DNA from: an uncultured Planctomycetia bacterium
Lineage (GTDB): Bacteria > Omnitrophota > Gorgyraeia > Tantalellales > Tantalellaceae
Assembly (NCBI GenBank): GCA_964421015.1
Contig: CAYQUS010000005.1
Location: forward strand, 10,063 to 74,062
Length of the DNA: 64,000 nucleotides
Reading direction: 5' to 3'
Shown in pieces: positions 15,778-59,845 of this stretch (position 1 is the stretch's first letter; every line of letters starts with the position of its first letter). A model generated the notes under the pieces. That model saw nothing but the letters and a program-made list of their open reading frames with translations. It was not told where the DNA came from and searched no databases. Position numbers and translations under genes: made by a program.

Positions 15778-15787
15778 GTAGGCTATA

Positions 15788-15880
15788 TATCCGGGGAGGG
15801 CGTGTGGCGCTCTGAGAGTTCCGATCGAGAAGCGGATTACCCGAGTAACCTGATCTGGATAATGCCAGCGTAGGGAGAGT
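15788..15880 (+). promoter_or_regulatory. TPP (THI-box) riboswitch
   Basis: Conserved CTGAGA, and ACCCGAGTAACCTGATCTGGATAATGCCAGCGTAGGGA matching the THI-element core (ACC...GAACCTGATCTGGATAATGCCAGCGTAGGGA). Lies 5' of thiE. Confidence 0.85.
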
Positions 15881-15892
15881 GAAGATATAAAA

Positions 15893-15925
15893 CCTCATGC
15901 GCTGCATGGGGTTTTTTGTTTTCGG
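15893..15925 (+). terminator. Riboswitch attenuator terminator
   Basis: CCTCATGC...GCATGGGG stem then TTTTTTGTTTT, positioned between the aptamer and thiE. Confidence 0.65.
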
Positions 15926-16025: not shown

Positions 16026-16880
16026 ATGAAAAATAAAAAACTGAATGACCGTAATCTGTACCTCGTTACGGGACAGGAATGTTCGCTTGGCCGAGCCACC
16101 ATTGAAGTTGTTAAGGCTGCCATACTGGGCGGTGTTGATATCGTTCAAATGAGAGAGAAAACGTTTTCAGCCGCCGAACTCAAAGAGCTGGGTGTTAAAC
16201 TCTCAAAGATATGTTCCGGAGCCGGGGTTAAATTTATAGTGAACGATGATCCGTATCTTGCGAAAGAGGTCGGCGCCGACGGAGTGCACCTCGGGCAGGA
16301 AGACCTTAAGAAATTCCCCATAGATACGGTTCGCCGTATTTTAGGGCCGGACGGGATAATAGGTGTTTCGACACATTCACTGCAAGAGGCCGAGATCGGT
16401 ATGACAAGTGACGCGGATTATATCGCGTTCGGGCCGGTCTTCCCGACAAAGACCAAAGACTATTTTGTAGGCATTTCTGACGTTCCCGGTGTGCTTGGTC
16501 TTGGGAATAAGCCTGTAGTAATGATAGGCGGCATAAACGGGGATAATATCGATCAACTCCTTTCTCTGGGAGCCGGAAATATAGCCATGATAAGGCATAT
16601 AACGGAGGCTTCAGATATAGAAAAGGAAGTAAGAAGGATGAAAGAAAAGATATTTTCTTCAGGTTCAAGCGGTACGGGAGTCAATATCAGGATAAACGGT
16701 GTTGTTCAGGCGATCGGAAAGGAAATGAGCATTTTTGAATTGGTAGAGTCAAGGGGGCTAAGGCCTGAACGGGTAGTTATAGAGCATAACGATAAAATAG
16801 TCCTGAAAGATATGTGGTCTGAAGTTTCCCTGCGCGGCGGGGACAATGTTGAAATAGTGAGTTTTGTTGGCGGAGGATGA
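16026..16880 (+). CDS. thiE: Thiamine-phosphate synthase fused to a ThiS-like sulfur-carrier domain
   Basis: The N-terminal roughly 210 aa is ThiE-like (LYLVTGQE; VDIVQMREK). The C-terminal roughly 65 aa ends in ...VSFVGGG, a ThiS/MoaD-type Gly-Gly terminus. Confidence 0.7.
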
Positions 16881-17664
16881 TATGGAAGATTTTCTTGAGA
16901 TAGCCGGGAGAAAGCTCTCCAGCAGATTTTTTCTGGGGACGGGAAAGTTCCCCAGAAAGTCAATGATAAGAGAAGTTCTTGATGTGTCGGGAGCCGATGT
17001 GGTGACGGTAGCATTAAGGAGGGTAGATACCGGTTCAGAGGATGAGAATGTTCTGGACCACATACCTGAAAGATGCGTGATAATGGCCAATACTTCCGGC
17101 GCCAGGAACGCAGAGGAGGCTGTAAGGATAGCCCGGCTTGCCAGGGCCGCGGGTTGCGGTAACTGGATAAAGATAGAGGTGATCCCGGACAATAAGTACC
17201 TTCTTCCCGACAATATGGAGACGCTTAAGGCTACCGAAATACTTGTGAAGGAGGGTTTCACGGTACTTCCTTATATGAATCCGGATCTTGTTTTAGGGCT
17301 TAAAATGGCCAAAGCCGGCGCCGCGGCTGTAATGCCGCTTGGGTCGCTGATAGGCAGTAACCGGGGCCTTAAGACCGAGGAAATAGTAAGCGTTATGATA
17401 AGGGAGATAGAAGTCCCGGTCATAGTGGACGCGGGGATAGGCAGGCCTTCCGACGCGGCAAGGTGTATGGAAATGGGGGCCGCGGCAGTTCTTGTCAACA
17501 CGGCGCTTGTTACTTCTCGGGATCCGGTAGCTATGGCGGAAGCATTCAGTCTTGCCGTCAGGGCGGGAAGACAGTCGTTTCTTTCCGGTCAGGGCGGAGA
17601 GTTTTTAGGGGCAAGGGCATCGTCTCCGTTCGAAGGTTTTTTGAGGGCAATAAACAATGAGTAA
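16864..17664 (+). CDS. thiG: Thiazole synthase
   Basis: Has the ThiG TIM-barrel motifs ([26 protein letters not shown]). Start is ambiguous; an internal Met at MEDFLEIAG is possible. Confidence 0.85.
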
Positions 17665-18772
17665 AATCGGGACTTTTTTGGACATAATTAATTCTTTTGA
17701 GGAAGGCTTTCCCGGGATGCCTTCCGCTCAAAATCGGGATCTTGAGGCAAGGAAGGCGATATGGTCTGACATCGTTACTCCCGAGGGGTTTTCCGCTCTT
17801 CTTTCAGACCTGTCCGATAGCGTCATAGAAGAGGCTGCCGAGCGGTCGCATGAGCTTACCGTTCGTAATTTCGGCAGAGTGGCGCATCTTTATACTCCGA
17901 TGTATCTTTCCAACTATTGCGACAATGAGTGCGCGTACTGCGGTTTCAAGAGAGATAACGCCATAAAGCGAAGAACACTTACTCTTGAAGAAGTGCGGCG
18001 CGAGGCGGAGTTCATATCTTCCAAAGGGCTAAGGAACCTGCTGATACTTACCGGAGGTTCAAGAAAGGAGGCTCCGGTAAGTTATATACGCTCATGCGTC
18101 AAGGTGCTTAAGGAATTTTTCAGTTCCATAGCGATCGAGGTCTACGAACTTACCCTGGACGAGTATAAAGAGCTTATAGATGAAGGTGTTGACGGGCTTG
18201 TGATATATCAGGAGGTGTACGACAGGGAAGTGTACCGCAAAGTACACCTAGCGGGATCCAAAACAGATTATGATTTCAGGCTGGCCGCTCCCGAACGGGC
18301 TCTATCGGCGGGCATGAGAACGGTCAATATAGGTTCTCTACTCGGGCTTGGTGAATGGAGAAAGGAAGTTTACCTTACCGCGCTGCACGCGGCGTATCTC
18401 GAAAAAAAATTCCCGGCCGCCGAGATCAGTGTTTCCGTACCGAGGATCCGTCCGCAGGTCTCTTCTTTTATCCCGAACTCTTTAGTTACCGACAGGGATC
18501 TTGTTCAGATAGTTACGTCGCTGCGGATATTCCTGCCCAGGGTGGGAATAACTCTTTCCACGCGGGAAAGAGCGTCTTTGAGGGACATGCTCATTCTGGC
18601 GGGCGTAACAAGGATGTCGGCCGGGTCGACGACCGTCGTGGGAGGGCATACTCTCCCGGGAGAGCCGTGCCGGGCGGAACAGTTCGAGATACTTGACGAA
18701 AGAGGTGTCGAGGAGATAAAAAAAATGCTGCGGGCAAAAGGATACCAGCCCGTTCTCAAGGATTGGGCATGA
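17657..18772 (+). CDS. thiH: 2-iminoacetate synthase (radical SAM)
   Basis: Radical-SAM [10 protein letters not shown] motif. The 371-aa length fits ThiH; HydG would be about 470 aa with an extra C-terminal Fe-S domain. Confidence 0.75.
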
Positions 18773-19437
18773 CGGAAGAAAACAGGCTCAAAGATAAAGA
18801 CTCTCTGGATAGGCAGCTCGAACGCAAGTTCGGAACTGAGTATATGAAAAAGGTCCGGGGAGTGCTGGTTGGGATAGCGGGCGCCGGCGGGCTGGGGTCT
18901 AACTGCGCGGCGAACCTTGTCAGGAGCGGGTTCAGGAGGTTCGTTGTCGCGGATTTCGACACGGTCGAACATTCGAATCTTGACAGACAGTTCTATTTTT
19001 ACGACCAGGTGGGCAGGAAAAAAGCAGATGCCTTAAAGGAAAACCTAAAGAGAATAGATCCCGATGTCGAAATAGTTATTTTCGGGGAAAAGGTTACCGT
19101 GGAAAACGCGGGAAAGGTCTTTTCGGAATGTGATGTTATTGTGGAGGCTTTTGACAAGGCCGAAGAGAAGAGGATGCTGGCCGAGATTTTCATGAAAAGC
19201 GGGAAATTCATGGTTTCGGCTTCCGGTATTTCCGGAATAGGGCACTCCGACGGGATAAGGACAAGAAAGATAAATGATAACTTCGTCATAGTGGGGGATC
19301 TTATGTCGGACATAAGCGAAAGCCCGGCGGTATCCCCCAGGGTGAACGCGGCCGCCGCCAAACAAGCCGACGTTGTGCTGGAACATGTGGTCGGGAGAAG
19401 CTTGCGGAAAGATCCCTCTACGGGTGGTGGCCGATGA
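18763..19437 (+). CDS. thiF: ThiF/MoeB-family E1-like adenylyltransferase
   Basis: GIAGAGGLGS nucleotide-binding loop and ADFDTVEHSNLDRQ. Confidence 0.85.
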   Translation: MGMTEENRLKDKDSLDRQLERKFGTEYMKKVRGVLVGIAGAGGLGSNCAANLVRSGFRRFVVADFDTVEHSNLDRQFYFYDQVGRKKADALKENLKRIDPDVEIVIFGEKVTVENAGKVFSECDVIVEAFDKAEEKRMLAEIFMKSGKFMVSASGISGIGHSDGIRTRKINDNFVIVGDLMSDISESPAVSPRVNAAAAKQADVVLEHVVGRSLRKDPSTGGGR

Positions 19438-20429
19438 AAGCCGTATGTTCCTTTTCCGGCGGGCTCGACAGCATGCTTGCCGCTGAACTTATGCTTGAAC
19501 AGGGGATAAAGGTGGAAGGTCTTTATTTCCGGACCGGTTTCGGCGGCTGCGGCGATTCGGAGGATGCGACGCCGGTAAGGGAGCGTGCGGAAAAACTCGG
19601 CATAGGTTTCAGGGTGGTCGATGTCGGGGAAGATCTCCTAAAGATCGTAAAAGACCCGCAGCACGGTTACGGAAAACACATGAACCCCTGTATAGACTGC
19701 CACGCGCTTTTCTTCAGGAAATGCGGCGAATATATGAAAAAGCTCGGATGTTCTTTTATCGTTACCGGTGAAGTTCTCGGCGAGCGGCCGATGTCGCAGC
19801 GCAGGTTCGCGATGAGGCAGGTGGATAAGGCGAGCGGTCTCGGCGGACTTATACTGCGGCCTCTTTCGGCGAAACTTATGGATGTGACCATCCCGGAGAA
19901 AAAGGGATGGGTGGACCGGGAAAAACTTCTCGATATAAACGGCCGGTCGCGCAAGAGGCAGAGAGAGCTCGCTAAGAAGTTCGGTATAAAAACCTATCCG
20001 AATGCCGCGGGAGGGTGTCTCCTCACGCAGAAGGATTTTTCGCGCAGGATGAAAGACCTCTTGGAGAATAAAAAGGACATATCCGCGAAAGATGTCCTGT
20101 CCCTTCGGTCGGGCCGGCATTTCCGTCTTCCCGGAGGAACTAAACTTGTTCTCGGCCGGGACCAAAAAGAGAACCTTAAACTTTACGGGTCGCTCGCGCC
20201 GAAAGAGATATTTCTGATAACGGTGGATGTTCCTGGTCCTGTGGGCGTGCTTTCGGGACAGATAAACGAAGATGATCGTGATCTTGCCGCGGGGATAATA
20301 GCGGCTTACAGCGATTCGGAGTGGGGCGACATAGTGGAAATGGAAATACAGAAAGGCCCTTCGGGGAAACGCCGGAGCATTAAGGCGGAAACCCCCCGCA
20401 AAAAAGAGGCGGAGAGGTTTCTGGTGTAG
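19434..20429 (+). CDS. ThiI-like PP-loop ATPase (AANH domain only, no THUMP/rhodanese) with a C-terminal extension of about 100 aa
   Basis: N-terminal PP-loop SFSGGLDS; IVTGEVLGERPMSQ and LRPL resemble ThiI ITGESLGQVASQTL and RPLI. The last roughly 100 aa are not recognised. Confidence 0.55.
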   Translation: MKAVCSFSGGLDSMLAAELMLEQGIKVEGLYFRTGFGGCGDSEDATPVRERAEKLGIGFRVVDVGEDLLKIVKDPQHGYGKHMNPCIDCHALFFRKCGEYMKKLGCSFIVTGEVLGERPMSQRRFAMRQVDKASGLGGLILRPLSAKLMDVTIPEKKGWVDREKLLDINGRSRKRQRELAKKFGIKTYPNAAGGCLLTQKDFSRRMKDLLENKKDISAKDVLSLRSGRHFRLPGGTKLVLGRDQKENLKLYGSLAPKEIFLITVDVPGPVGVLSGQINEDDRDLAAGIIAAYSDSEWGDIVEMEIQKGPSGKRRSIKAETPRKKEAERFLV

Positions 20430-20482
20430 GTAAATGGAGAGGCGCTCAGGGAGAAGACTAGTGGAGTAATAAGGAGAACAGA

Positions 20483-20640
20483 CATTGTCATTCTGAGGGG
20501 GCGAAGGTAGCGCGAATAAACATTGTCATTCTGAGGGGCCGAAGGCTCCGAAGAATCTAAAAATATTTTAATGTGATCCTTCGTCGGCCTGCGGCCTCCT
20601 CAGGATGACAATTTTGGTTGGCCTCTTCAGGATGACAATG
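20483..20640. repeat. MITE-like repeat element (family 'TTGTCATTCTGAGG')
   Basis: Two forward cores CATTGTCATTCTGAGG (20484, 20521) and two inverted cores CCTCAGGATGACAA (20597, 20626), with a central CGAAGAATC...GTGATCCTTCG. Near-identical to the copy at 59719-59845. Confidence 0.8.
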
Positions 20641-20647
20641 ACGTGTT

Positions 20648-20687
20648 GCGAACGGGGACGTGTACCTTTGGTACGCGTCCCCGTTCC
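20648..20687 (+). other. Perfect 11-bp hairpin
   Basis: GAACGGGGACG...CGTCCCCGTTC. Confidence 0.6.
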
Positions 20688-20724
20688 GAGAGTAAAAAGT
20701 AGGGCAACAACTCAATAACGAAGC

Positions 20725-21765
20725 ATGAACATAAAAACGATCTTCAAAAAGATTGACAATGATACGCCCCTCAGCCAGGAAGAGGTCGAGTTTCTGCTCT
20801 CTGCCTCCGGCGACGATATGTCCGCGCTTTACGAAAAGGCCGACAGTGTGCGCCGTGAGTACATGGGCGACGAGATATTTCTCCGGGGCATAATAGAGTT
20901 CTCTAATTTCTGTACAAAGAAGTGCCTTTACTGCGGCATAAATTCGCGTAACGATAAAGTCGCGCGATACCGCATGTCTGACGAAGAGATACTTGAAGTC
21001 TGCCGCGGAATGGTATCACGCGGACAGACCACAGCTGTCCTCCAGTCGGGAGAAGACCCTTTTTACACTAAAGAAAAAATGGCAGGTCTTATAAAGGCGA
21101 TAAAGAAGGAAACTTCGCTTGCGGTAACGCTTTCGGTAGGGGAAAGGGACAGAGATACTTACGCTTTATGGAAAGACGCGGGCATGGACAGGTATCTTCT
21201 CCGTTTTGAGACCTCGGACGAAGAGCTTTTTAGGTCGTGCCACCCTGACAGCGATCTTAAGACCCGGGTAAAGTGTCTCCGTGACCTAAAGTCTCTCGGC
21301 GTTCAGACGGGGTCAGGTTTTCTTATAGGTCTCCCCGGCGAGACCATACAGCAGCTTGCGCGCGACATACTTTTCTGTACATCGCTTTCCCTCGACATGA
21401 TAGGAGTGGGGCCCTTTATACCTCACGGGGATACCGGGTTCGGCCTCGAGAACAATCCATTTCCGAAAGATGTCTTTTTTAAGACAGTATCTATCCTGCG
21501 TCTTCTCAATAAGACCGCTCATATACCCTCAACGACGGCTTTCGACGCCATAGATCCCGACGGCAGGAACCTTCTTCTCGAAAGAGGGTGCAATGTCTTC
21601 ATGCCTAACGCCACTCCCGGTAAATACCGCAAACATTATCTCCTTTATCCGGGCAAACCCTGCGTCGATGAATCTTCCGAAGACTGCGCTTCGTGCGTTA
21701 TCGCGCGTATAACCTCTCTAGGCAGAAAACTGGGTAAAGGCCCGGGACACTCGTTACGTAAATAG
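20725..21765 (+). CDS. hydE: [FeFe]-hydrogenase maturase HydE-like radical SAM protein (BioB-like family)
   Basis: YMGDEIFLRGIIEFSNFCTKKCLYCGINSRNDKVARYRMSDEEI...AVLQSGEDP closely parallels HydE (YVGDEVHIRAIIEFSNVCRKNCLYCGLRRDN...RYRM...IVLQSGEDP). Confidence 0.7.
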   Translation: MNIKTIFKKIDNDTPLSQEEVEFLLSASGDDMSALYEKADSVRREYMGDEIFLRGIIEFSNFCTKKCLYCGINSRNDKVARYRMSDEEILEVCRGMVSRGQTTAVLQSGEDPFYTKEKMAGLIKAIKKETSLAVTLSVGERDRDTYALWKDAGMDRYLLRFETSDEELFRSCHPDSDLKTRVKCLRDLKSLGVQTGSGFLIGLPGETIQQLARDILFCTSLSLDMIGVGPFIPHGDTGFGLENNPFPKDVFFKTVSILRLLNKTAHIPSTTAFDAIDPDGRNLLLERGCNVFMPNATPGKYRKHYLLYPGKPCVDESSEDCASCVIARITSLGRKLGKGPGHSLRK

Positions 21766-21773
21766 CCGTTTTC

Positions 21774-21925
21774 GTTATTGCGTTGTTGAGTTATTGCGTT
21801 GTTGCGTGGTTGTCATCCTGAAGCCCAACCAACATTGTTATCCTGAGGCCCAACCAACATTGTCATCCTGAAGGCCAACCAACATTGTCATCCTGAGGCC
21901 CGAAGGGCCGAAGGATCACATAAAA
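21774..21925. repeat. Direct and tandem repeat block (16-bp duplication plus four 25-bp units of the MITE core, reverse-orientation MITE end)
   Basis: GTTATTGCGTTGTTG occurs twice. Units of TTGTYATCCTGARGSCCAACCAACA start at 21810, 21835, 21860 and 21885, followed by CGAAGGGCCGAAGGATCACAT. Confidence 0.8.
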
Positions 21926-21935
21926 ACAAAAATGA

Positions 21936-21984
21936 CGGGACAGGTGGTGCCCGACATTTACGCCTCAGCTGTCGACCTGTCCCG
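21936..21984 (+). other. 10-bp hairpin
   Basis: CGGGACAGGT...ACCTGTCCCG. Confidence 0.5.
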
Positions 21985-22065
21985 AAAAGTACAAGATGGT
22001 TAGAAATGAAAAAGACGGTTGTCTTTTTGTTGTTTTAACAGAATGAAAATATTATAATACCTGCG

Positions 22066-25000
22066 ATGATATTACATAAAGCTAGGTATAACGTTGTTTT
22101 AAGGGGAATAGCGGCTGTTCTTGCTTTTGCCGTGGCATTTCCTTCTTATTCCGCCGACATCGCTCCGGGGTTACCAGCGGCGTCGGAATACTCTTCAGAT
22201 ACTCTCGGTATACTCCCTGCGCCCATGCGCGGTATAGATAACGAAGCGCGCAATATGGCGTACCGTGAGCTATTCGAAAAGAACCTCGCGCCCGTTTACG
22301 GCGGAAAAGGCGCGTGGGATATCCTCCTTGAACGACTCTCCTCGAAAATAGGTTTTAATACGGCGACTTCTGTAAGGTTTTCCATAGAAGATGTATGGGC
22401 GCGTTTCATAGACGCCAATAGCGCTCTTGCGGAGGAAGGCAACGCTTTTATAGACAGATGTATTGCTTCCCCGGACGGCGTGCACGGTGTGTTGGATAAA
22501 TATGATGTAAAAAAGCTCGAAGAGATGGCTTCGAACTTTGTTTTCCCGCCCGAGCTCGAACTCTACATAAAGAAACACACAAAAGACCTGACCGGATGGG
22601 TCATTGCCAGGTCCAGCGGTATAACGGAAGACTCTTACATAAGGAACCTTGCGGGTATCTTCAAGTCCCCTAAAGAAAAAGACGAGCGGCTTGTGGCGCA
22701 CGGCATAAAAACGATATTTGCTGACGCCGTAAGGAAAATATGGATAGAGCAGAATTACGAGGACGGGTATATAAAGATAGACGGCATACCCGACAGGCTT
22801 ACCCGTTCTGACGGGTTCGGCGTTGTTGTGCAGCCTTTTCTGGATTTTGACGCTTCCGGTACGGGCATGACGGATATGTACGGATGTTCGACCATACAGG
22901 CGGTCGTGGGCGATGCCGATAAGGCCGTGCTTCCTGTGTACGCCACGACATGCCAGTTCCTTTTTAAGAAGGACGCCGCTGCCGGGAGCGATATGGAGTT
23001 TAATCCGTCATTCGAGCGTCTGCCGTACGAATTCCGTCTTAAAGGCGAACTTTATTCCGCGACTGACCCGCAAGGCGCCGAAAAGGCTTTGGCCGGTTAC
23101 CCTAAGATAGACGGCACCTTTTCCCCGATAAGCGAAGACGCGGCGAGAGAACTTTATCGTGTTATGAGCGCGCTTGAAGAGGAGATAGGCTGTCCTCTCG
23201 ACGTGGAATGGGGTTTTCTTGACGGCAAACTTTACATAGTGCAGATGAGGCCCATAATAGGCGATTTTAAAAAGCCTCTTGTTGAGCCATGCGAAAAATT
23301 GAAGAACTCAGAGCCCATAGCGCGTACACCGGTGGCCAGGGGGGAGACCTCTCCGGAAGGGTTTACCTCGAAAGTGGTCCTTATTGCCGATATAGTGGGA
23401 CGTGACGACGTTAAAAAGTTCGAGGATACTCTGGACGGGGGATATATACGCGTGCAGTACGATGTTGCGACTAAGCTCCTCCCTAAGAATGATAACGGTG
23501 TGTTCGAGGAAATAGCTACGAAGGCAAAGGTTCTTGTGGACCCGTATCAGGGGTCCCCCGAAGCGCATAACATAGTACAGCAGTACGGCCGTATAGCTTC
23601 CGGGGAATTTGTCTACGCGAACGGGCCTAAATTGAGGAACGGCCTCAATGACAACCTTACTTTTGTGCCGCATCCCGACATAAGAGGCATATGGGTGTCG
23701 AAAGAGGATGTTACATATTTCTGCGACGGTTTAAGGGCGCAGTTCTTCATAGCTTCAGAAGGTGAAAGAGAGGACGAGCCGAAACTCGACGAAAGACAAA
23801 AAACTATTATGGATTTTAATTCCAGAGTAAGAGGAATGTGGTTTGAGAATTTATACTCTAAATTCTGGCCCGAAGACCATAGTTTGTTTAAAAGCCGTAT
23901 ACTTACAGAGATCGTTTTTAAAGGGGCTACCAGTGGACAAAAATCAATAGCACAACATTTCTGGTACAGCGCATCAGACGATTATATTGAAAAAGCCCGG
24001 TCGGTTATTTTGAAGGGAAGAGCTTCGGAAGAAGACTTAAACACGATAGGCCCTTTTGTGGAGCTTTTAGAAGAAATTTTATCTTATCCGCTTTATCCGA
24101 GAGAATGGGAATCAGAGTGGATGGAGGAATATCAGCGCGTGCTGAAGCTTACGGATATGTCCGGGGCAGTAGAGGAGAGAAAGGCAGAAGACGCCGTTAA
24201 GGTGGTACCCAAAAAATACAGGGCGGTTTTTGCAGATTATAAATATCCGCGGATATTTCTAGCTTCTCGTCTTGAAGAAGATCTCCCGGAAGCTGAAATA
24301 TTACGCGTTCCGACATTAGATCCGGGTCAGATTAAATATGAACTTTCGAAAGTGGATTATGATGTAGCTTTCTTCTACACTCATGAAACGGGCTGGAAGA
24401 AGGGAGAACTGGTGGACATCATAACCAGGATAAAAGAGAAAAACCCTGCTGCCGATATTTTTCTGGACTCGGTCATAGGAGGGCCTGATCTATCGGCTTT
24501 GCAGGAAAAATACGACAGAATATACAGAGATGTAACTCATCAAGATAAGGTTCTCGAAAAAGCCATACAAGAAGGATTTTTAAAGTGGCAGGACGCTGTG
24601 CGGGCCGAGGGGGCGGAAGATAGTGAAAAACAAGAAAATCTCTCGCCCAGTCGGCTAAATTACAGGGCCTTTTTTGTTGATGAGTGGACAAAGTCGCGTG
24701 AAATGATAACGGATGAGGTTCAGGATGATTTTCCGGATTGTGAAGTGATAAGACCCAGCGGAAGCGGCCAGACAGACATAATAAACGCTCTTGAGAAAGT
24801 CGATTACGACATAGACTTTTTTTACACTCACCTTACGGCAGGTTGGCCCCGCGCGGACTTTTTAGAGATATTGGCAAGAATAAGGAAAAAGAACCCGGAA
24901 GCCCTGATATTCATAGACAGTACTATGGAGGACTTTTTGTTTTTCGAGGCCTTTGAGGCCGAATTTGGAAAAGTGCACCGCGCAATGAGCGTTTCCGATG

Positions 25001-28000
25001 AGCTCATTAAAAGAGCTATGGTAGAAGGGATACTTAAAAAACGTTCGGGTGCAAGTTCTTCTAACACGGTATCCGAAGAAATGTCGGAGACAGCATCAAC
25101 TTCAGCCTCTAGTAAAAATTTTTCCGAAAAACTTAAAATATTGGTGTTCGATGACAGCAGGTTATATCTTTTGCCTTTCGTTGAATATCTGGGAAGGGCT
25201 CTTCCACAAGACGAATTTGAGATAGTATCCGCGATGAGTAATGATGAGGTCGTCTCTCTTCTTGAAAGCGGCGGATTCGATATGGTCATAGCCGACCTCC
25301 AATTTCATGGAGCGATAGACGATGGGATAATAGAACTGCTCGGAAATGTTCCTCATGTAGTGGCTTTCTCGGGAGATGAGGAAGATGAGATGCGAAGAGT
25401 AGTGAAGAGAGATTTCCCGCAGGAGCTTGCTGAAAGGACCATCATCGTTGAAAAAGGAAATGTGAAGCTGAGCGCCGAAAAAATAACTGTCCTCGCGAGA
25501 GACATAAGAGAACAGCTATTAAGAGCCGAGGAAGAAGCGGGTATAGATGGCGATGGTACTGATACGACAGGTACCTCCGAATCAAAACTCAGAATTTTCA
25601 TGGTAGAAGACGAAGAAAATACGGCCAAGAGGATAGAAGGCGATATTTTAGACAGTCTGTCAAAAGACGAATATGAGTTCAGCCGTGTTTCTCTCTCCGA
25701 GCTTATGCACGGGAAGCTTCTTGAGAGAGGTGACGTAGTTATTCTTGATATTTCGGGGATATCACAGACGGCGGGTGGTATTATCAGGGATATGCTCGAT
25801 ATGGGAGCGGCGATCATCTGTCACACCGCTTACAGCGATAAGGAAGTTGAAGACAGGATAGGCAAAGAATTATTCTCTCTTGTGGAGTATTCGGATAAGG
25901 TCGGCGGGAGCTCGAATATAGTACCGCTTTTAAGATCGGTAATGGAAGAGCAAATGATACAGTCTGGAATAGAGCCAGAATCCGCAAGTAAAGTGAGAGT
26001 TCTGTGGGTAGACGGAAACTCGGATGATATCGCAAGGGCCCAAAAAACCAATAATGAAATGTTCCATACCGAAGGGGATATAGAATTTGTATATGTTTCT
26101 TCCATGGAAGAAGCCCTGCGGGAGATGACGTCCGGGAAGTTCGACGCGGCGGTATTTGACGCTGAGCTCGAAGAAGAACCGGCATTTACGCGCGACTTTT
26201 ACCGTCAGATCTTTCGCATACCAAGGCTATGCGCCTTAACTTCAGGCACTGTGAAAGAAGCGGCTCGGGATCTTTCAGAGATAAATCAGGACAGTTTTGA
26301 AAGAGTGGAGATATTCCCGAGGATATACTCCAGGGACGATAACCGTGAAATAACGGCCCAGAGATACGTAAAGGTGATAGCCGACAGGTTAAGGCCCTAT
26401 TTTGACATGAGGCTTAGCGAGTTAAGACTCAGAAAAGATCCGTCTTGGGGGCGATCTGAATGGGGGGAAAGCTTGGGAAAACCCAATGTGACATTTGACG
26501 ACGAAGAGCCTGTTCTTGAGAAGGTAAAAGTGCTTTATGTGGACAAGGGTTTAGATGAGAAGAACCCGGGCTATCTTAATTTATCGCGCGAGCTTGATAG
26601 GTTTTTTTCTGGACAGCTTGATATAGAGGTCTTTTACGCCAAGGATCCATCGAGCGCCGATATCATTCTGCAAAAAGAACTGCCTGACGTGGTAATTTGT
26701 GATATGAACCTTAAAGACGCTCTCGAATCAGCCGAGGAAATATTTTATTTAGCCAGACATTACTCGAAAGAGAAAATGAAAAAAGTTTTTCTTATGGGAG
26801 TAAGCGGACTTGTGGATATAGATATTGAGAGGATATCCGACCGCGTAGGCGCGCCCATAGAGCTTCTCGACAAAATGCGCGCGGATCTAAATAAAAATCC
26901 AACACGGACATTGCTGGACATACGAGAGAGGAATATAAAAGAATTCCAGGCAAGAAAAAAAGCCATGGATGACATTGAGATAAAGAAACTTATTAACGAT
27001 CCCCAAAAGATAAAAATTCTTTTCGTCCAGGATTCCAAAGGGGTGACGGATTACGCGAAGGATGTATTCACCAAAGAACTCGGGCTTGTTTTAAAAAACG
27101 AACGTCTACTGTCGGGAGAAGAATATATTATCGTTTTTAGCGATTCTGAATGGGAAGCCCTTGGTTTTTTTGACGAAGGGGCTTTTGACCTCATTATATC
27201 CGATTGGCTCATATCTTCTGACGGTCCTATGGACCTTTTTAGGACGGCTGCCGCACGGGGCATGAAAAAGATAGGTGTATATTCGGCCAACTGGAATTTT
27301 GTGGAACTTGCCCGGACAAGGTTTGGGGATGTTATGGAGGTTGTGGATTGCTGCGGGGGCCTTTCCGATACAGCGGTGCCGCTAATAAGGTCTCTTCGGG
27401 AAGAACAGCTTAGGCGCATGGATGAGGAAAAGGCGGCTTTAAAAGTGGAAGAGCCAGGTTCTGACGAAGAAGATAAGACCAAAGGCCGGCCCGAATATCC
27501 CAGGCCGATGAAGGCGCTTGTTGTTTATGAGGACGTTGCGCGTGAGGATGAACGTTATTATGAGAGGAAAAAGACTTTTCTTTCTGAAATAAGCGAATAT
27601 TTTTTGCTTGAAGAAATAGCCCCGGGACGATATGCGGGAGAGGATATAGAAATAGAATATTTCAAGGCTGAGTCTTATGACGAGATATGGGACAGGATAA
27701 CGGAAGGCGACATCGATATAGTGGTGAACGAGACTATACCCGAACTTGATAGGAATAAAGGGTATTTCAATCACGTTTATGCTTCCGTTCGGGATGCCAA
27801 CAACATGCTGCCCAGGATGTTTGATGAAGTTCTCTCAGGCAACGCGGAAGTCAGCGGTTTTGTCGAGAGCGTGGTCGAGCGGAGGGACAAAGAGCTTTCT
27901 CTTTATAGACAAGATCTTGCCAGATGGGAATCGGCGCATCTTCTGAGAGAGCCCGAAAGGCCGGAAAAATTAACGGTTTTATGCCTGCAGGATGAACCGG

Positions 28001-30441
28001 AGATAATAACCGGAGAATGGTGGCATGATATGATAAGATCCGAGCTCGATCCAAACGAATATATTGTTCTTGGGGCTAAAAATGTAGCCGAGGCCCGGGA
28101 AAGATTTGGACATATGAAAGTTGATATATGTTTTTCCGATATAATGGGGACATTCGCCGCGGAACACGCTAAAGAGCTTTATGTATTATTTCGCGGTGAG
28201 GATTATGGCATAACATTGAGTTCGATTGTGTCTATAAAACACATTCCTCGGGCGATTGGCCCTGGAATCAATATTAAAACTAGCCTTATAGACGCCGGGT
28301 TTGATCCAGAAGGCGTTCATGTAACTGTCGGTATATCTCCTGGAAGTATTAAAAACAGGGTGCTCGCCGCCCGCGAAAAACAGCTTAAGGAATATGAAGA
28401 GCTTAAGAAAAAGTGGGATGAGAAGGTCGCCCGTGAGGCTTCCGCCTCCGCCGGTAAAAGCGGAGAGGACGAGCCGCTAAAAACTGAAATATCCGAAGAA
28501 AAACTTCCGAAACTCCGCATTATTATAGGCGAAGATGATGAGGACCTCAGGTCTGAGCTGTTGGGTGTTTTGATGGTACGATTCGGGCTCTCCCGTATAG
28601 ATGATTTCCACTATGAGGGGGAGGATATCTTTGTCACAACTGTCGCGTCACAAGGGGATTTTTTAGATCGCTTGTCGTCTCAGGATGCGGATTACGCTGT
28701 TATAGACTGGGACCTTGTCGGGGGCAAAGGGCCGTTCGATATGCTTGATGCGCTTTCCGGGAAAAATATAATGGCTGTCGATCTCAGGTCAGGGCTTCCT
28801 CTTTCTTTTGACAGTAAATTTCATGATGCCAGAGAAAAATATCCGGATCTTGCTATAGAAGAATTTCCTTTTGAGCCCGAAGATATTATTACGCGTATTC
28901 GCCAGTTAAGAGAAGATCAGATAGCGGGTTATGCTGAGACTTTCGATAGCGCCGAAGAGGCGGTATCGCCGCTGACACGTCCCGAAAAACCCGAAAAGTT
29001 CAGGGTTTTGATGGTAGACGATAACGGTGGGGTTACGAGTGCCATAGAGGATATGTTTAAAAAACGTCTGTCTGAAGAGTTTGAATTTTATTCGGCATAC
29101 AGGGTTCTTTCGTCGATAGATCTACTTAAGAACATAGATTTTGATCTTGTTATATACGATATGTTGCTTCCCGGGTCGGCTGTTCCCGGAATAGACGAAG
29201 TTTTCAGGGATAAGCTGCTAAAAGTGCCGCACCTTATAGTTGAATCGGGAGGGGGCTTTCCTAAAGAGGCGGAAGGGCCGTGGGCCGAACTCTATCCCAG
29301 GGCAGAGACATTATGGAAGGGGGATATTATCGGCAAGCTTCCCGGGATCGTTATGAGTTACCGTGAAGAACAGCTCAGGCAATACGAAGAGGCCGTTAAA
29401 GAATGGGAAGTATCCAATGTAAATGTGGCTCCGCGCGCGGAAAAACCCGCCGGGGAAAAAATATTCATTGTCGATGATTTTGGTGACGACGCGGCAAACC
29501 TCGCGTCGTTCATAGCAAAAGAAAAGGAAAATTTTAAGGTTGATAGGTACAACATGATGTATACCCTGCGCCGGGCGCTTGAAAAAGGCAAAGTGCCGGA
29601 TATCCTTGTTGTGAATTCGGCCGGCGTGAAAAAAGAAGGCGAATTAGAGAAAGAGTCCATGGACGTTATAATACGCGCGGTCATGGAAAAGAACCCGTCG
29701 GTCAGGGTGATAGTTATAAGCGACGAAGCTGCTGTTTTACCGGAAGACGGCAGGGAGGACCTGAATATAGAGGCTGTTATCGAACGGCCGTTCCATTTCG
29801 CGCTTGTGGCAGATGCTATAAACGGCAGGCTTGATCAAAAGAGAAAGTTTTCCCGCGAATTATTCGGCCTGGAAGAGACTGAAAGAATTTTTGACGATAT
29901 GGAACAGGCCGAGCTTTATGGAGAGACGGCAAATATAAACGTGTGGAAAGGTTATGCCGCTCCGGCCCAGGAGAACATGCTTACGCGTATACGTAAACAC
30001 ACCGAAAAAGGGCCGTATAAAGTGAGTTTTGGTTCCGAAATAAATGACCTTGTGAAACGCGCGGCAGAGGCTTCCGGTAAAGATAATACGGTTACAATAT
30101 TGCCTTACGGAAAACTCAGCGAAGCGCAAAGAGAAGAGCTTAACTCATCAAACGCCCGAGTTATATTTATGGATATACCCGGCGACGTTACCTCCTCAGA
30201 AGATGGTTACACGAATCTTGCCGCCATCATCGGAGCGGGGGCGGCGTATTTAAACATGAATACCACTGCTTTAACAGGTTTTTATTCTATACTTACCGAA
30301 GAGACCCTCCAAACTGATATTACAGTAGAAAGCCTCATGAAAGACCCCGCTAGGTTTATTTTTAACCTCGCCCCCAGGCACAGTTACGGTGAACTCAAAC
30401 TTATCAACGAAAGAATCGAAAAGATCCTAATGATGGCGTAA
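22066..30441 (+). CDS. Giant (2791 aa) protein: N-terminal signal/anchor, PPDK_N-like ATP-binding domain, then a tandem array of about 12 degenerate CheY-like receiver (REC) modules
   Basis: The N-terminus is a hydrophobic signal or anchor sequence. YGGKGAWDIL, ARSSGITEDS and LDVEWGFLDGKLYIVQMRPI match PPDK_N motifs. Repeated module starts (KILVFDD, LRIFMVEDEE, VRVLWVDGNSDD, VKVLYVDKG, IKILFVQDS, FRVLMVDDNGG, KIFIVDDFGDD) are each followed about 50 aa later by a hydrophobic-D strand (DMVIADLQF, DLVIYDMLLPG). There is an internal duplication DYDVAFFYTHETGW / DYDIDFFYTHLTAGW. Confidence 0.6.
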   Translation: MILHKARYNVVLRGIAAVLAFAVAFPSYSADIAPGLPAASEYSSDTLGILPAPMRGIDNEARNMAYRELFEKNLAPVYGGKGAWDILLERLSSKIGFNTATSVRFSIEDVWARFIDANSALAEEGNAFIDRCIASPDGVHGVLDKYDVKKLEEMASNFVFPPELELYIKKHTKDLTGWVIARSSGITEDSYIRNLAGIFKSPKEKDERLVAHGIKTIFADAVRKIWIEQNYEDGYIKIDGIPDRLTRSDGFGVVVQPFLDFDASGTGMTDMYGCSTIQAVVGDADKAVLPVYATTCQFLFKKDAAAGSDMEFNPSFERLPYEFRLKGELYSATDPQGAEKALAGYPKIDGTFSPISEDAARELYRVMSALEEEIGCPLDVEWGFLDGKLYIVQMRPIIGDFKKPLVEPCEKLKNSEPIARTPVARGETSPEGFTSKVVLIADIVGRDDVKKFEDTLDGGYIRVQYDVATKLLPKNDNGVFEEIATKAKVLVDPYQGSPEAHNIVQQYGRIASGEFVYANGPKLRNGLNDNLTFVPHPDIRGIWVSKEDVTYFCDGLRAQFFIASEGEREDEPKLDERQKTIMDFNSRVRGMWFENLYSKFWPEDHSLFKSRILTEIVFKGATSGQKSIAQHFWYSASDDYIEKARSVILKGRASEEDLNTIGPFVELLEEILSYPLYPREWESEWMEEYQRVLKLTDMSGAVEERKAEDAVKVVPKKYRAVFADYKYPRIFLASRLEEDLPEAEILRVPTLDPGQIKYELSKVDYDVAFFYTHETGWKKGELVDIITRIKEKNPAADIFLDSVIGGPDLSALQEKYDRIYRDVTHQDKVLEKAIQEGFLKWQDAVRAEGAEDSEKQENLSPSRLNYRAFFVDEWTKSREMITDEVQDDFPDCEVIRPSGSGQTDIINALEKVDYDIDFFYTHLTAGWPRADFLEILARIRKKNPEALIFIDSTMEDFLFFEAFEAEFGKVHRAMSVSDELIKRAMVEGILKKRSGASSSNTVSEEMSETASTSASSKNFSEKLKILVFDDSRLYLLPFVEYLGRALPQDEFEIVSAMSNDEVVSLLESGGFDMVIADLQFHGAIDDGIIELLGNVPHVVAFSGDEEDEMRRVVKRDFPQELAERTIIVEKGNVKLSAEKITVLARDIREQLLRAEEEAGIDGDGTDTTGTSESKLRIFMVEDEENTAKRIEGDILDSLSKDEYEFSRVSLSELMHGKLLERGDVVILDISGISQTAGGIIRDMLDMGAAIICHTAYSDKEVEDRIGKELFSLVEYSDKVGGSSNIVPLLRSVMEEQMIQSGIEPESASKVRVLWVDGNSDDIARAQKTNNEMFHTEGDIEFVYVSSMEEALREMTSGKFDAAVFDAELEEEPAFTRDFYRQIFRIPRLCALTSGTVKEAARDLSEINQDSFERVEIFPRIYSRDDNREITAQRYVKVIADRLRPYFDMRLSELRLRKDPSWGRSEWGESLGKPNVTFDDEEPVLEKVKVLYVDKGLDEKNPGYLNLSRELDRFFSGQLDIEVFYAKDPSSADIILQKELPDVVICDMNLKDALESAEEIFYLARHYSKEKMKKVFLMGVSGLVDIDIERISDRVGAPIELLDKMRADLNKNPTRTLLDIRERNIKEFQARKKAMDDIEIKKLINDPQKIKILFVQDSKGVTDYAKDVFTKELGLVLKNERLLSGEEYIIVFSDSEWEALGFFDEGAFDLIISDWLISSDGPMDLFRTAAARGMKKIGVYSANWNFVELARTRFGDVMEVVDCCGGLSDTAVPLIRSLREEQLRRMDEEKAALKVEEPGSDEEDKTKGRPEYPRPMKALVVYEDVAREDERYYERKKTFLSEISEYFLLEEIAPGRYAGEDIEIEYFKAESYDEIWDRITEGDIDIVVNETIPELDRNKGYFNHVYASVRDANNMLPRMFDEVLSGNAEVSGFVESVVERRDKELSLYRQDLARWESAHLLREPERPEKLTVLCLQDEPEIITGEWWHDMIRSELDPNEYIVLGAKNVAEARERFGHMKVDICFSDIMGTFAAEHAKELYVLFRGEDYGITLSSIVSIKHIPRAIGPGINIKTSLIDAGFDPEGVHVTVGISPGSIKNRVLAAREKQLKEYEELKKKWDEKVAREASASAGKSGEDEPLKTEISEEKLPKLRIIIGEDDEDLRSELLGVLMVRFGLSRIDDFHYEGEDIFVTTVASQGDFLDRLSSQDADYAVIDWDLVGGKGPFDMLDALSGKNIMAVDLRSGLPLSFDSKFHDAREKYPDLAIEEFPFEPEDIITRIRQLREDQIAGYAETFDSAEEAVSPLTRPEKPEKFRVLMVDDNGGVTSAIEDMFKKRLSEEFEFYSAYRVLSSIDLLKNIDFDLVIYDMLLPGSAVPGIDEVFRDKLLKVPHLIVESGGGFPKEAEGPWAELYPRAETLWKGDIIGKLPGIVMSYREEQLRQYEEAVKEWEVSNVNVAPRAEKPAGEKIFIVDDFGDDAANLASFIAKEKENFKVDRYNMMYTLRRALEKGKVPDILVVNSAGVKKEGELEKESMDVIIRAVMEKNPSVRVIVISDEAAVLPEDGREDLNIEAVIERPFHFALVADAINGRLDQKRKFSRELFGLEETERIFDDMEQAELYGETANINVWKGYAAPAQENMLTRIRKHTEKGPYKVSFGSEINDLVKRAAEASGKDNTVTILPYGKLSEAQREELNSSNARVIFMDIPGDVTSSEDGYTNLAAIIGAGAAYLNMNTTALTGFYSILTEETLQTDITVESLMKDPARFIFNLAPRHSYGELKLINERIEKILMMA

Positions 30442-30590
30442 CATTGAAATAGGGTTTCTGTGATCCTACCAGGGCCCCTCCGCCCGGTGTAGATCCTCCC
30501 TGTACGGATCACAGAAAACACCTTCTATCTTTGTGCCGGGAACAAAGTCCGCTATCAAAGTGTCCCCAAAACGCTTCGTCATTCAGTCGA

Positions 30591-30703
30591 GTTGGTGACA
30601 GGCACCAGCGCCTTTAACAGGCGAATTATGAAGCGCGCAGAATACCACTTCCCAGCGGGTAACGGCTATTATAGATTCTTCGCTTCGCTCAGAATGACAA
30701 TGT
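30591..30703. repeat. Fragments of both dispersed repeat families
   Basis: TTGGTGACAGGCACC (30591-30612) is a palindrome-family half. GATTCTTCGCTTCGCTCAGAATGACAATG (30675-30703) is the MITE core in reverse orientation. Confidence 0.6.
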
Positions 30704-30880
30704 TCCTACTTCCTACTTCCTGCCTTTGCTATGTCTCTCGACTGTTGCCTCCGGCCCCGCCCATGCACAAACATTTGCCCGATTTGGCCTTTATGTTATA
30801 ATATCCCAACGGGGTAGATAATACACTCCGCGGTGATCAACGTTAAAAATGCCCCTCTGGGCAATGGAAGGCCGGTCGAT

Positions 30881-32071
30881 ATGGTGGAAAAACATATATA
30901 CATGGATAATAACGCGACAACCCCTCTTCACCCCGAGGTGCGAAAGGCCATGGCGGATGCCATGGATGTTTACGGCAACCCTTCAAGCCTTCACTGGTTC
31001 GGCAGAAAAGCCAAGGGTATGATAGAGACGGCCCGAAGGAAGGTAGCCGGTCTTATAGGGGCTTCCCCCGAGGAGATAATATTCGTAGGCAGCGGGTCAG
31101 AGGCCAACAACACAGTTCTTTCTATTTTTTCCTGCCATCCGAGGTCCTGTGACGGATGCCGGCAGGGAAGAGATGAGATAATAACGACCTCTATCGAGCA
31201 CCCGTGCATTATTGAGACCTCAAAATGCCTTGAGATGAAGGGTACTTCCGTGAAATACCTCATGGTAGACCGTTACGGAAAAGTGGATACGACGGACCTT
31301 AAGGCGTCCCTTGGCAAAAAAACCGGTCTTGTGTCTGTTATGATGGCCAATAACGAGATAGGCACCCTGCAGGACATAAAGCTTTTGGCCGCCATGGCCC
31401 ATGACGCCGGAGTGCTTTTTCACACTGACGCTGTGCAGGCCGTGGGCAAAGTGCCGGTAGACGTGAAGGACCTTGATGTGGATTTTCTCACTATATCCGG
31501 GCATAAGATATACGGACCCAAAGGAATAGGAGCGCTTTACATAAAAAAAGGAGTGCCGTTCTGTCCCATGATAAGAGGCGGGCACCAGGAGATGGGCAGA
31601 AGAGCCGGTACCGAGAACACTATCGGTATAGTGGGGCTGGGAAAGGCTGCCGAGATGCGCGTGAAGGAAATGGCGGAAGAGGAAAAAAGGCTGCTCGAAA
31701 TGAAGACTAGAATAAAAAAAGGGCTTATCGAGAATATCCCGGATATTGTTTTCAACGGGCATCCTGTTGATTGCCTGCCGGGAACATTGAACGTTTCGTT
31801 CGAGGGGGCCGAGGGAGAATCGGTTCTTCTCGGGCTTGATCTTGAGGGGATAGCGGTTTCGACAGGATCCGCCTGCGCCTCGGGAGCCCTGGATCCTTCG
31901 CATGTTCTGCTCGCTACCGGGCTTGATGTTGCCCTGGCGCACGATTCCATAAGGATAAGCCTGGGACGGGAAAACACTGCAGGTGAGGCGGACAGGCTTG
32001 TAGAGGCGATGGCGGGCGTTGTATCAAGGATACGGAGCATATCTACCGCCTATGGGAACAGAAAAGGATAG
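30881..32071 (+). CDS. nifS: Cysteine desulfurase (NifS/IscS type)
   Basis: Class V aminotransferase motifs, PLP-Lys region SGHKIYGPKGIGALY and active-site Cys loop STGSACAS. The track ORF starts at 30833; the Met at 30881 (MVEKHIYMDNNATT) or 30902 is more likely. Confidence 0.85.
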   Translation: MVEKHIYMDNNATTPLHPEVRKAMADAMDVYGNPSSLHWFGRKAKGMIETARRKVAGLIGASPEEIIFVGSGSEANNTVLSIFSCHPRSCDGCRQGRDEIITTSIEHPCIIETSKCLEMKGTSVKYLMVDRYGKVDTTDLKASLGKKTGLVSVMMANNEIGTLQDIKLLAAMAHDAGVLFHTDAVQAVGKVPVDVKDLDVDFLTISGHKIYGPKGIGALYIKKGVPFCPMIRGGHQEMGRRAGTENTIGIVGLGKAAEMRVKEMAEEEKRLLEMKTRIKKGLIENIPDIVFNGHPVDCLPGTLNVSFEGAEGESVLLGLDLEGIAVSTGSACASGALDPSHVLLATGLDVALAHDSIRISLGRENTAGEADRLVEAMAGVVSRIRSISTAYGNRKG

Positions 32072-32104
32072 ACGGCGGCATACAAATATGAAAAGGCGGA
32101 CTGT

Positions 32105-32707: not shown

Positions 32708-32764
32708 TGCCGGAAAGATCTCTTACAAAGACGATAACCGCGTTATCCTTTTTTCAGATAAAGC

Positions 32765-33165: not shown

Positions 33166-33237
33166 GAAGAGATAGAAAATAGAAGGTAGAAAGGAGAAAG
33201 GTTTAGGTTGAGGTTAAGGTTGAGGGGGAGGTAAAGT

Positions 33238-33744: not shown

Positions 33745-33762
33745 GATACGGAGAATAAAAAC

Positions 33763-58102: not shown

Positions 58103-58226
58103 TCATAGCATGGGGCGCAAGAGGATCCTTAGTGACTGGCGCGGAGTTGCTATTTTCTGATGAGAAGTGCCTGTCAACAATGTGTCTAAACAAGTAGCAA
58201 GGCAGAAGTGGGGAGTAGAATAGAAC

Positions 58227-58270
58227 GTCATTCTGAGCGAAGCGAAGAATCAAGATCCTTCGGTCGCTAG
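58227..58270. repeat. MITE-family fragment
   Basis: GTCATTCTGAGCGAAGCGAAGAATCAAGATCCTTCGGTCGCT. Confidence 0.6.
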
Positions 58271-58315
58271 ACTCTCTCAGGAAAAAGTGGTGAGTGAGTT
58301 ACATGACACCAATCT

Positions 58316-59678: not shown

Positions 59679-59718
59679 ACAAAAGTCAGGTCAGGAATGA
59701 AAGGACTTCAAACACCCC

Positions 59719-59845
59719 GTCATTTTGAGCCACTCCACCTGTCATTCTGAGGAGGCCGACGGCCGACGAAGAATTTATATTTTATGTGATCCTTCGGCCC
59801 TTCGGGCCTCAGGATGACAAGTTAAGAAAGGCCTCAGGATGACAA
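59719..59845. repeat. MITE-like element, full copy
   Basis: GTCATTTTGAG/GTCATTCTGAGG ... CGAAGAAT...GTGATCCTTCGG ... CCTCAGGATGACAA twice. Collinear with the copy at 20521-20640. Confidence 0.8.

Follow-up and report, generated by a model that had tools for sequence, protein, structure and literature searches.

Putative REP-type hairpin doublets around a native hydE gene in an Omnitrophota genome, and a giant gene inserted at one of them

The 64,000-nt stretch of contig CAYQUS010000005.1 (GCA_964421015.1) analysed here (hereafter the window, to whose 64 kb copy counts refer) carries on its plus strand a hydE gene (20725..21765) encoding a 346-aa radical-SAM (S-adenosylmethionine) protein that is an orthologue of the [FeFe]-hydrogenase maturase, as indicated by TIGR03956 and a match in the PDB. 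This gene follows a thiamine biosynthesis (thi) operon and is bracketed by copies of a structured repeat, at 20483-20640 and 21810-21925; further downstream are a giant open reading frame (ORF) and the nifS and nifU genes. An earlier note, made from the sequence alone, had read this arrangement as a hydE cassette delimited by mobile or structured repeats, and the repeat sequences on both sides of the gene are indeed as it claimed. The nature of these repeats, and the history of the two genes that lie next to them, are the subject of this report.

The repeats share a core, GTCATYCTGAG...GAAGRATC, which flanks hydE on either side and recurs at three more intergenic sites, i.e. at five loci in the 64 kb, all of them intergenic and with flanking genes in varying orientation. 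With at most one mismatch, GTCATYCTGAG occurs 18 times in the window versus 1.15 expected, and 0/100 shuffles reached 18. Heads reading TGTC are located at 20524, 21886 and 59740 on the plus strand and at 20610, 30699 and 59819 on the minus strand, while CGTC heads are located at 58226 and 59718. The basic unit of 25-35 nt can be written (T/C)GTC-ATYCT-GA-[GC-rich stem + 3-nt loop]-GA-AGRAT-C, and consists of an unpaired head, a 5-bp ATYCT/AGRAT stem, a tandem G.A/A.G internal loop, an inner stem of variable sequence, a GNA triloop and a C(TC) tail. Within the window, all units that open with ATTCT (T-type) close with AGAAT and all those that open with ATCCT (C-type) close with AGGAT. Most units are combined into doublets, which are convergent heterodimers with their heads pointing outwards, in which a conserved, AT-rich spacer of 13-17 nt separates a T-type from a C-type unit, with an optional head-only unit at one end and one to three at the other in the window. 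Whole doublets are also predicted to be foldable as a single long hairpin. Three of them (doublet A, doublet B as reconstructed below and doublet E) have a spacer of the common form T(A/T)ATATTTT(A/T)ATGT, and a fourth is decayed.

Doublet A, upstream of hydE, begins with a truncated extra head unit (ATTGTCATTCTGAGGGGGCGAAGG..., 20483..20518, plus strand), apparent from the sequence and from direct repeat family D6. Pattern matching and the predicted fold define its left T-type unit (20524..20557, plus strand), TGTC-ATTCT-GA-[GGGGCC GAA GGCTCC]-GA-AGAAT-C, for which a 5-bp stem, a 2x2 GA/GA loop, an inner stem and a triloop are predicted. The AT-rich spacer TAAAAATATTTTAATGT (20558..20574) is the apex of the long hairpin in folds of the whole doublet (-28.8 kcal/mol and z -9.1 as DNA, -59.8 kcal/mol and z -5.4 as RNA), and is followed by the right C-type unit (20575..20610, minus strand), also defined by pattern match and fold, which reads TGTC-ATCCT-GA-...-GA-AGGAT-C on that strand. 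An extra head-only unit (20611..20640; spacer CCAACCAAAA plus TTGTCATCCTGAAG on the minus strand), recognized through inverted repeats I7 and I13 that it forms with the 21850-21898 units, completes the doublet, and the gap that remains before hydE contains a perfect 17-bp hairpin without U-tract (20650..20688, plus strand; RNA fold -39 kcal/mol, z -6.2).

On the other side of hydE, three head-only 25-bp tandem units (TTGTCATCCTGARGCCCAACCAACA, 21810..21884, plus strand), delineated by Tandem Repeats Finder and alignments, precede the left half of doublet B (21885..21925, plus strand), which comprises a C-type unit and the left part of the spacer (...GGATCACATAAAA) and was identified by alignment and by collinearity with L264, the contig of a close relative. 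The 41 nt of this half are 100% identical to an inverted copy at 59780-59820. The earlier description of a core amplified into a 25-bp tandem 3' of hydE is borne out by Tandem Repeats Finder (3.7 copies and 89% matches at 21810-21901), and a separate 16-nt tandem (GTTATTGCGTTGTTGA, 1.9 copies, 100% matches, 21773-21812) follows the hydE stop codon directly and leads into the array of head units. The right half of doublet B lies beyond the giant ORF (30668..30711, minus strand) and contains the rest of the spacer, a T-type unit (30674-30698) and the tail AATGTTCCTACTT; it was delimited by collinearity with L264 and by alignment with L001, in which the doublet is intact and its right arm is 100% identical to 42 nt of the window (30670-30711). 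The decayed doublet (58226..58286, plus strand), which retains an intact short T-type unit (CGTCATTCTGAGCGAAGCGAAGAATC) next to a degenerate inverted partner, lies between convergent genes, and doublet E (59718..59845, plus strand), in which a head-only unit, a T-type unit, an AT-rich spacer, a C-type unit and a second head-only unit follow one another, lies between divergent genes. The extra copies listed in the earlier note (59719-59845, 58227-58270 and 30675-30703) are all present. Its definition of the element, about 125 bp with terminal inverted repeats, was right about the inverted arms, but these are actually a convergent pair of hairpin units with extra head-only units; similarly, the copy that it placed after hydE exists, but as half a doublet, of which the ‘fragment’ at 30669-30711 is the other half. 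A second palindromic repeat family, TTGGTGCCAGGCACCA...TGGTGCCTGGCACCAA, is found at 46209-46273, 59641-59692, 30590-30608 and 58168-58185, with three copies 60-80 nt away from TGTC-REP loci (REP, repetitive extragenic palindromic).

The same unit was found well outside this genome, with at least 120 matches to one strict unit pattern in IMG/VR contigs and at least 120 matches to a different, 23-base pattern in metagenome contigs, spanning 31-75% GC among the matches listed. Together with the enrichment in the window, these numbers show that the repeat is dispersed and structured rather than a terminator peculiar to the hydE locus, the outcome that would have spoken against the earlier note. 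Among the matches listed for both collections, 312 distinct units could be used to follow covariation. The Y/R pair is Watson-Crick in 305 of these 312, TGTC heads account for 89% and CGTC heads for 8%, a GNA triloop is present in 147 units, more than any other class of loop, and the inner stem, of ~2-7 bp, is 74% paired with a further 14% G.A, versus 39% in shuffles. A GA/GA internal loop is seen in 188 members of a more loosely matched set of 205. Roughly every second C-type unit of the metagenome set has a recognizable partner at most 90 nt away, many family members outside the window are single units rather than pairs, and tandem arrays (L254, L263) and head-only duplications are seen in unrelated contigs as well. 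One strand of the unit, the purine-rich one, has sheared-type G.A pairs and GNA loops where its complement has C.T mismatches; since these features are confined to one strand, a role for a single strand seems likely, and the units might thus act at the level of single-stranded DNA.

Most of these properties are reminiscent of the CGTC-tagged REPs (Di Nocera, De Gregorio and Rocco 2013, BMC Genomics 14:522; PMC3733652), in which the tag is often TGTC, the stem opens with A-T and then T-A, and the unit ends in a short tail. These elements, to which Neisseria dRS3 and Rickettsia RPE-4 and RPE-6 belong, are mainly found as dimers with conserved spacers, heterodimers being common, and have been reported in five phyla without a dedicated transposase; the member peptides VIPAKAGI and VIAGLDPAIH read GTCAT...ATC, and the four families CGTC-1 to CGTC-4 have continuous 8-9-bp stems and 4-5-nt loops (PMC3733652). 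The repeats discussed here have in common with them the CGTC/TGTC head, the A-T/T-A start of the stem, the short 3' tail, the occurrence in several phyla, the lack of a linked transposase and, to judge by the five loci of the window, probably also the intergenic location, the inverted dimers with conserved spacers and the heterodimers. However, the published tail is CCA whereas in window-type units it is C followed mostly by TC, the Omnitrophota host is absent from the five phyla listed, and units in the window multiply head-only copies at their ends. In a search of the open-access literature, in which the variant was not found spelled out, 11-mers of the motif matched only unrelated primers, and of six 14-16-mers four had no match and two appeared once or twice in papers on other subjects. 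On these sequence features, we take the window repeats to be a variant, or new member, of the CGTC/TGTC-tagged REP superfamily lying outside its four described families.

Other labels were considered for the repeats. The REP/BIME elements of E. coli and the REPIN-RAYT system of Pseudomonas are also short imperfect palindromes with an unpaired tag, which pair in inverted orientation, have two alternating unit types (cf. BIME Y/Z), form arrays and vary between strains. However, the REPIN tag is GTAG rather than TGTC/CGTC, REPINs are usually lineage-specific whereas the unit in the window is conserved across very different genomes, and no RAYT (a Y1 transposase) is found in the window or reported for the CGTC class. 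None of the 43 scanned window ORFs of at least 110 aa matched a transposase, an integrase or a Y1 (HUH) transposase, and the ORFs that inverted pairs of units enclose in L100 and L119 look by eye like metabolic or phage-structural genes, none being transposase-like. A REPIN-RAYT element was therefore rejected, there being neither a GTAG head nor a Y1_Tnp-like ORF in the window. The same goes for an intrinsic terminator, as no plus-strand terminator-like site was found in 20300-22100 and the hairpins have no T-runs. With Rfam 15, only a thiamine pyrophosphate (TPP) riboswitch reached its gathering score in the window, and the repeat regions yielded nothing but weak matches to generic hairpins (miRNA models) at E up to 10; a hammerhead-like reading of CUGA...GAA was dropped by eye because its core did not fit and Rfam found nothing.

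The identity of hydE is clear. Its product scores 336.4 bits with TIGR03956 (cutoff 254.6) versus 149.8 with PylB and 85.2 with BioB, and in the PDB 314 bits with Thermotoga maritima HydE versus 110 with PylB and ~50 with BioB, so that the ORF at 20725 is assigned to HydE rather than to BioB or PylB, in line with the hydE-like label of the earlier note. The match to the T. maritima protein (PDB 3CIX, 3IIZ and others) covers residues 32-341, with alignment of both the radical-SAM motif, CX3CX2C, and the three cysteines of the C-terminal triad. The best match (99%) is annotated Candidatus Omnitrophota, a Margulisbacteria HydE from a hydA-hydG-hydF-hydE cluster is 60% identical, and a search of a collection of genome contigs gave eight loci with 76% identity at best; an exact-protein look-up of HydE and of two NifS start variants returned no record. 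Unlike the T. maritima gene, hydE in the window is found between the thi operon and nifS-nifU and not with hyd genes.

This position is an old one. The order gltA-gdhA-thiES-thiG-thiH-(thiF)-thiI'-hydE, in which thiI' is a thiI-like gene, is kept in relatives of ~75% identity (contigs L004, L005-L008 and L137), and a further relative of this kind, L136, spans only thiI'-hydE. The two genes are separated by 78 nt in L004, 22 nt in L005-8, ~35 nt in L136 and ~384 nt in L137, where the gap is filled by an unrelated repeat. No unit of the window repeat family was found in the hydE loci of L004, L005-8, L136 and L137. Moreover, hydE, nifS and nifU are adjacent in L005-7, L137 and L264, and the GC content at third codon positions (GC3) of hydE in the window (0.556) is typical of its neighbourhood. 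Because relatives keep hydE after thiI' without the repeat, and because its GC3 is native, the cassette reading finds no support; hydE is a native, ancestral gene between the thi operon and nifS-nifU, into whose upstream spacer (thiI'/hydE) doublet A would have landed, doublet B having sat in the hydE/nifS spacer. A different, lineage-specific repeat, GGACGAGCGAGCGGGCATGGTCC...GAGCGAGTCCGTCGAGCGCA, is present in the hydE flanks of other Omnitrophota, on both sides in L137 (9816-9890 and 11345-11440) and downstream only in L005-7 (L005 9790-9900, L007 3440-3650), and L007 differs from L005 by a MITE-resembling insertion of ~214 nt in the hydE flank (MITE, miniature inverted-repeat transposable element).

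What interrupts a repeat at this locus is the giant gene. A strain-specific insert of 8,742 nt (21926..30667, plus strand), defined by alignment with L264, splits the spacer of doublet B, and its sole gene is the giant ORF (22066-30441, plus strand), which encodes a protein of 2791 aa with PPDK_N and response-regulator receiver domains according to Pfam. It is followed on the plus strand by nifS (30881-32071, the ORF opening at 30833) and nifU (32105-32707), both identified with Pfam. L264, found by an exact look-up of NifU and encoding a NifU 100% identical to that of the window, has the order hydE, a 368-nt spacer, nifS and nifU, and its spacer contains one intact doublet, in which two head-only units and a C-type unit are followed, beyond the spacer ACATAAAATTATA, by a T-type unit with the tail AATGTTCCTACTTCC. 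By blastn, the window matches L264 1-1530 at 20370-21925 and L264 1530-5565 at 30668-34682, and the window minus 21926-30667 aligns end to end with L264 at 98.1%. The breakpoints, 21925 and 30668, are thus defined with a 1-nt ambiguity and fall within the doublet spacer, i.e. at the apex of the long hairpin; no terminal inverted repeats (TIRs), direct repeats or duplication >1 nt were found at the ends of the insert. The half element at 21810-21925 and the fragment at 30669-30711 are accordingly the two parts of one doublet, and the segment actually inserted at a repeat is the giant gene, not hydE. With a GC3 of 0.473 for the giant ORF, versus 0.52-0.61 in most of its neighbours, and the largest tetranucleotide distance in the window, the insert looks foreign in composition. 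Insertion of foreign DNA precisely within a REP dimer has precedents in the insertion sequence (IS) elements found in REPs of Pseudomonas, Neisseria and Sinorhizobium (cited in PMC3733652), but the insert in the window is a single giant cargo gene without transposase, TIRs or duplication >1 nt. A 2788-aa homologue of the giant ORF in L265 (4333-17052) is immediately preceded by genes for MerR, a resolvase, RNase H and a phage integrase and immediately followed by a PhdYeFM/ParE toxin-antitoxin pair, a setting which suggests that this gene family may travel on mobile islands. A second PPDK_N protein, of 858 aa (8574-11150), is encoded within the same 22 kb as the giant ORF and is syntenic with L004.

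A scenario can be outlined in which the apex of the doublet hairpin would be prone to breakage or recombination and would have captured cargo (moderate confidence), the 8.74-kb segment with its one giant accessory gene entering the spacer of doublet B and separating the two halves. The hydE-nifS adjacency seen in outgroup relatives is the older state. The number of head-only units also differs between strains, three being present in the window and two in both L001-3 and L264, and this number probably varies by slippage, again with moderate confidence.

Taken together, that the repeats are REP-type doublets, that hydE is native and that the giant-gene segment entered the apex of doublet B would in our estimate hold jointly with a probability of about 0.78, and several observations weigh against it. 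In L001-3, which are 99.4% identical to L264 over 1,579 nt and have both the giant ORF and an intact doublet, the left junction of the cassette is another one, 49 nt further right than in the window and with a different filler sequence, for which a single simple insertion cannot account. Either two independent insertions at a hot spot, or one insertion with later exchange through the repeats, may lie behind the two junctions; a search with the giant protein for an L001-type right junction found no near-identical full-length entry, the best being 51% identical over 19% of the protein. L264 could also have lost the cassette precisely, via recombination between flanking repeats, and an origin of the insertion in breakage and repair is itself an inference. 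As to the class of the repeat, the stem of the window units is broken up by G.A pairs and closed by a loop of only 3 nt, and we therefore speak of a variant and not of one of the four CGTC families. Finally, short units are only weakly stable under the nearest-neighbour model, and the case for their folding therefore relies mainly on covariation. To our knowledge, neither GNA triloops nor sheared G.A pairs are given parameters of their own in this model.

That hydE itself was brought or mobilized by flanking MITE-like inverted repeats, in the manner of a composite transposon, is suggested by the 43-nt inverted pair of 93% identity formed by the hydE-proximal arms (20598-20640 and 21858-21898) and by the fact that the genes downstream of hydE differ among relatives. 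However, the gene occupies the same place in L004, L005-8, L136 and, behind an unrelated repeat, L137, all without the window repeat, and adjoins nifS-nifU in L005-7, L137 and L264, its GC3 is typical, neither transposase nor target-site duplication was found, and the flanking doublets are independent elements, one of which is intact in L264, which makes such a history scarcely credible. That the repeats are classical MITEs, i.e. deletion derivatives of DDE-type IS mobilized in trans by a transposase recognizing their TIRs, would agree with their length of 95-125 bp, inverted ends and dispersed intergenic copies, and they do resemble bacterial MITEs such as Neisseria Correia/NEMIS, Streptococcus RUP and cyanobacterial Nezha, which are ~100 bp, intergenic and able to form long hairpins through their inverted ends. 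MITEs, however, have target-site duplications and a parent IS, neither of which was found in the window. No direct repeat >3 nt flanks doublets A or E, the point on which the earlier note had asked for a check, family members outside the window are in many cases single units, what looks like an inverted repeat is in itself a conserved hairpin that covaries internally, the window has no transposase, and the REP class has no known association with one (PMC3733652). We therefore consider a MITE origin very improbable and the label ‘MITE-like’ loose, the REP class being the better fit.

A different view holds that the doublets are mainly RNA elements, a transcribed hairpin protecting the 3' end of the thi mRNA or attenuating read-through and thereby partly uncoupling hydE from the TPP riboswitch. 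The RNA fold of doublet A given above, followed as it is by the second, 17-bp hairpin, would be in accord with this, as would the repeat-free relatives, in which hydE lies 22-78 nt behind thiI' and is probably co-transcribed, and REPs have been reported to occur mostly between co-directional or convergent genes and to act in RNA (PMC3733652). Against this, there is no U-tract and no plus-strand terminator was found, one doublet lies between divergent genes and thus outside any 3' UTR (untranslated region), the orientation of doublets is not tied to gene direction (A being plus and B minus, both between plus-strand genes), and only one of the two units in each transcript would show the conserved G.A/GNA strand. 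We regard a mainly RNA-level function as possible but the less probable option; an RNA-level effect in addition to a DNA-level role, which might dampen read-through from thi into hydE, is equally tentative and would in any event be secondary. A further and more doubtful idea, put forward because the unit is conserved almost base for base across genomes of 31-75% GC, is that the hairpin is the recognition site of a putative, widely shared enzyme that acts on single-stranded DNA. If this were true, the gain of head units, the cargo at the apex and the two cargo junctions would be footprints of ongoing activity.

The thi operon upstream of hydE (16026..20429, plus strand) has a gene order shared with L004, L005-8 and L137 and is headed by the TPP riboswitch (15782..15893, plus strand; Rfam RF00059, 65.7 bits versus a gathering score of 54.3). 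Its genes, all on the plus strand and assigned with NCBIfam and Pfam, are a thiE-thiS fusion (16026-16880), thiG (16864-17664), thiH (17657-18772), thiF (18763-19437) and thiI' (19434-20429), the product of which has a PP-loop and an NFACT-R_2 domain. Both the ThiE-ThiS fusion and the ThiI/MnmA-like PP-loop protein with its C-terminal NFACT-R_2 are conserved in relatives. ThiH scores 452.9 bits with TIGR02351 (cutoff 380) and 191.7 with the HydG model (cutoff 312.15), has 371 aa versus 470 positions in that model and is encoded in a riboswitch-headed thi operon. The care that had been urged over ThiH/HydG assignments is thus unneeded here, ThiH being above its own cutoff and the HydG model below its own. 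The absence of hydA, hydF and hydG from the 64 kb was confirmed, since tblastn with Margulisbacteria HydA and HydF found nothing and HydG matched only thiH (34%). Reports of group A3 [FeFe] hydrogenases from several lineages of the Omnitrophota (PMC8542988, PMC10066038) make it plausible that hyd genes lie elsewhere in the genome.

It is tempting to propose that a thi-linked HydE would serve thiazole, sulphur or Fe-S metabolism and be co-regulated with thiamine synthesis, rather than (only) hydrogenase maturation. The gene is kept between thiI' and nifS-nifU across the ~75%-identity clade with gaps down to 22 nt, the riboswitch precedes the operon in L004 as well as in the window, HydE is also next to nifU-nifS in an unrelated Syntrophorhabdaceae genome, and the 64 kb are devoid of hydA, hydF and hydG. 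However, the protein is 60% identical to a HydE from a hyd cluster and scores 314 bits with T. maritima HydE, A3 [FeFe] hydrogenases have been described from several Omnitrophota lineages (PMC8542988, PMC10066038), scattered maturase genes are common, Pelobacter having three copies of hydE of which one is in its own operon (PMC3543383), and L005 and L137 have no riboswitch at gathering score, although L004 and L138 do. Such a role therefore seems unlikely. In the Syntrophorhabdaceae locus (L014/L015, 6841-11047), which is a second, independent HydE-NifSU adjacency, Rrf2, NifU, NifS and a protein with hexapeptide repeats are encoded ahead of a HydE of 59% identity, the gene of which faces an MnmA-like one. 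In L138 (64% identity), a TPP riboswitch on the minus strand lies upstream of a thiI-like gene and nifS (169-5351), and hydE is 5 kb away on the opposite strand (10001-11038); thi, nifS and hydE therefore share a neighbourhood even when rearranged.

Elsewhere in the window there are two very large back-to-back ORFs, 46475-51844 (1789 aa, Glyco_transf_5) and 52117-56529 (1470 aa, no Pfam match). Giant ORFs have been reported to be abundant in Omnitrophota (PMC10066038), with which the large ORFs of the window fit. A 142-nt tandem repeat (56540-56869, ~2.2 copies, 99% identity) is located between the 1470-aa ORF and an aldo/keto reductase gene.

The repeat family thus belongs to an already known kind of element, of which it represents a widespread variant with G.A pairs and a GNA loop, and the cassette idea is wrong for hydE but in a sense right for the neighbouring giant gene. 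For annotation, this means that hydE is not to be treated as horizontally acquired cargo and that ThiH needs no re-examination. The locus is a clear case, provided by nature, of a REP doublet at which DNA has landed or broken, since among near-identical uncultured strains the site is empty in one, filled in another, with breakpoints exact to the nucleotide, and of a third type in others. The CGTC/TGTC-tagged REP class would be extended to Omnitrophota, and its G.A/GNA variant, which is extremely common across environmental DNA, may offer a way to learn how REPs that lack a transposase spread. Finally, the conserved placement of HydE between the thi operon and nifSU provides a testable lead on the biology of this protein.

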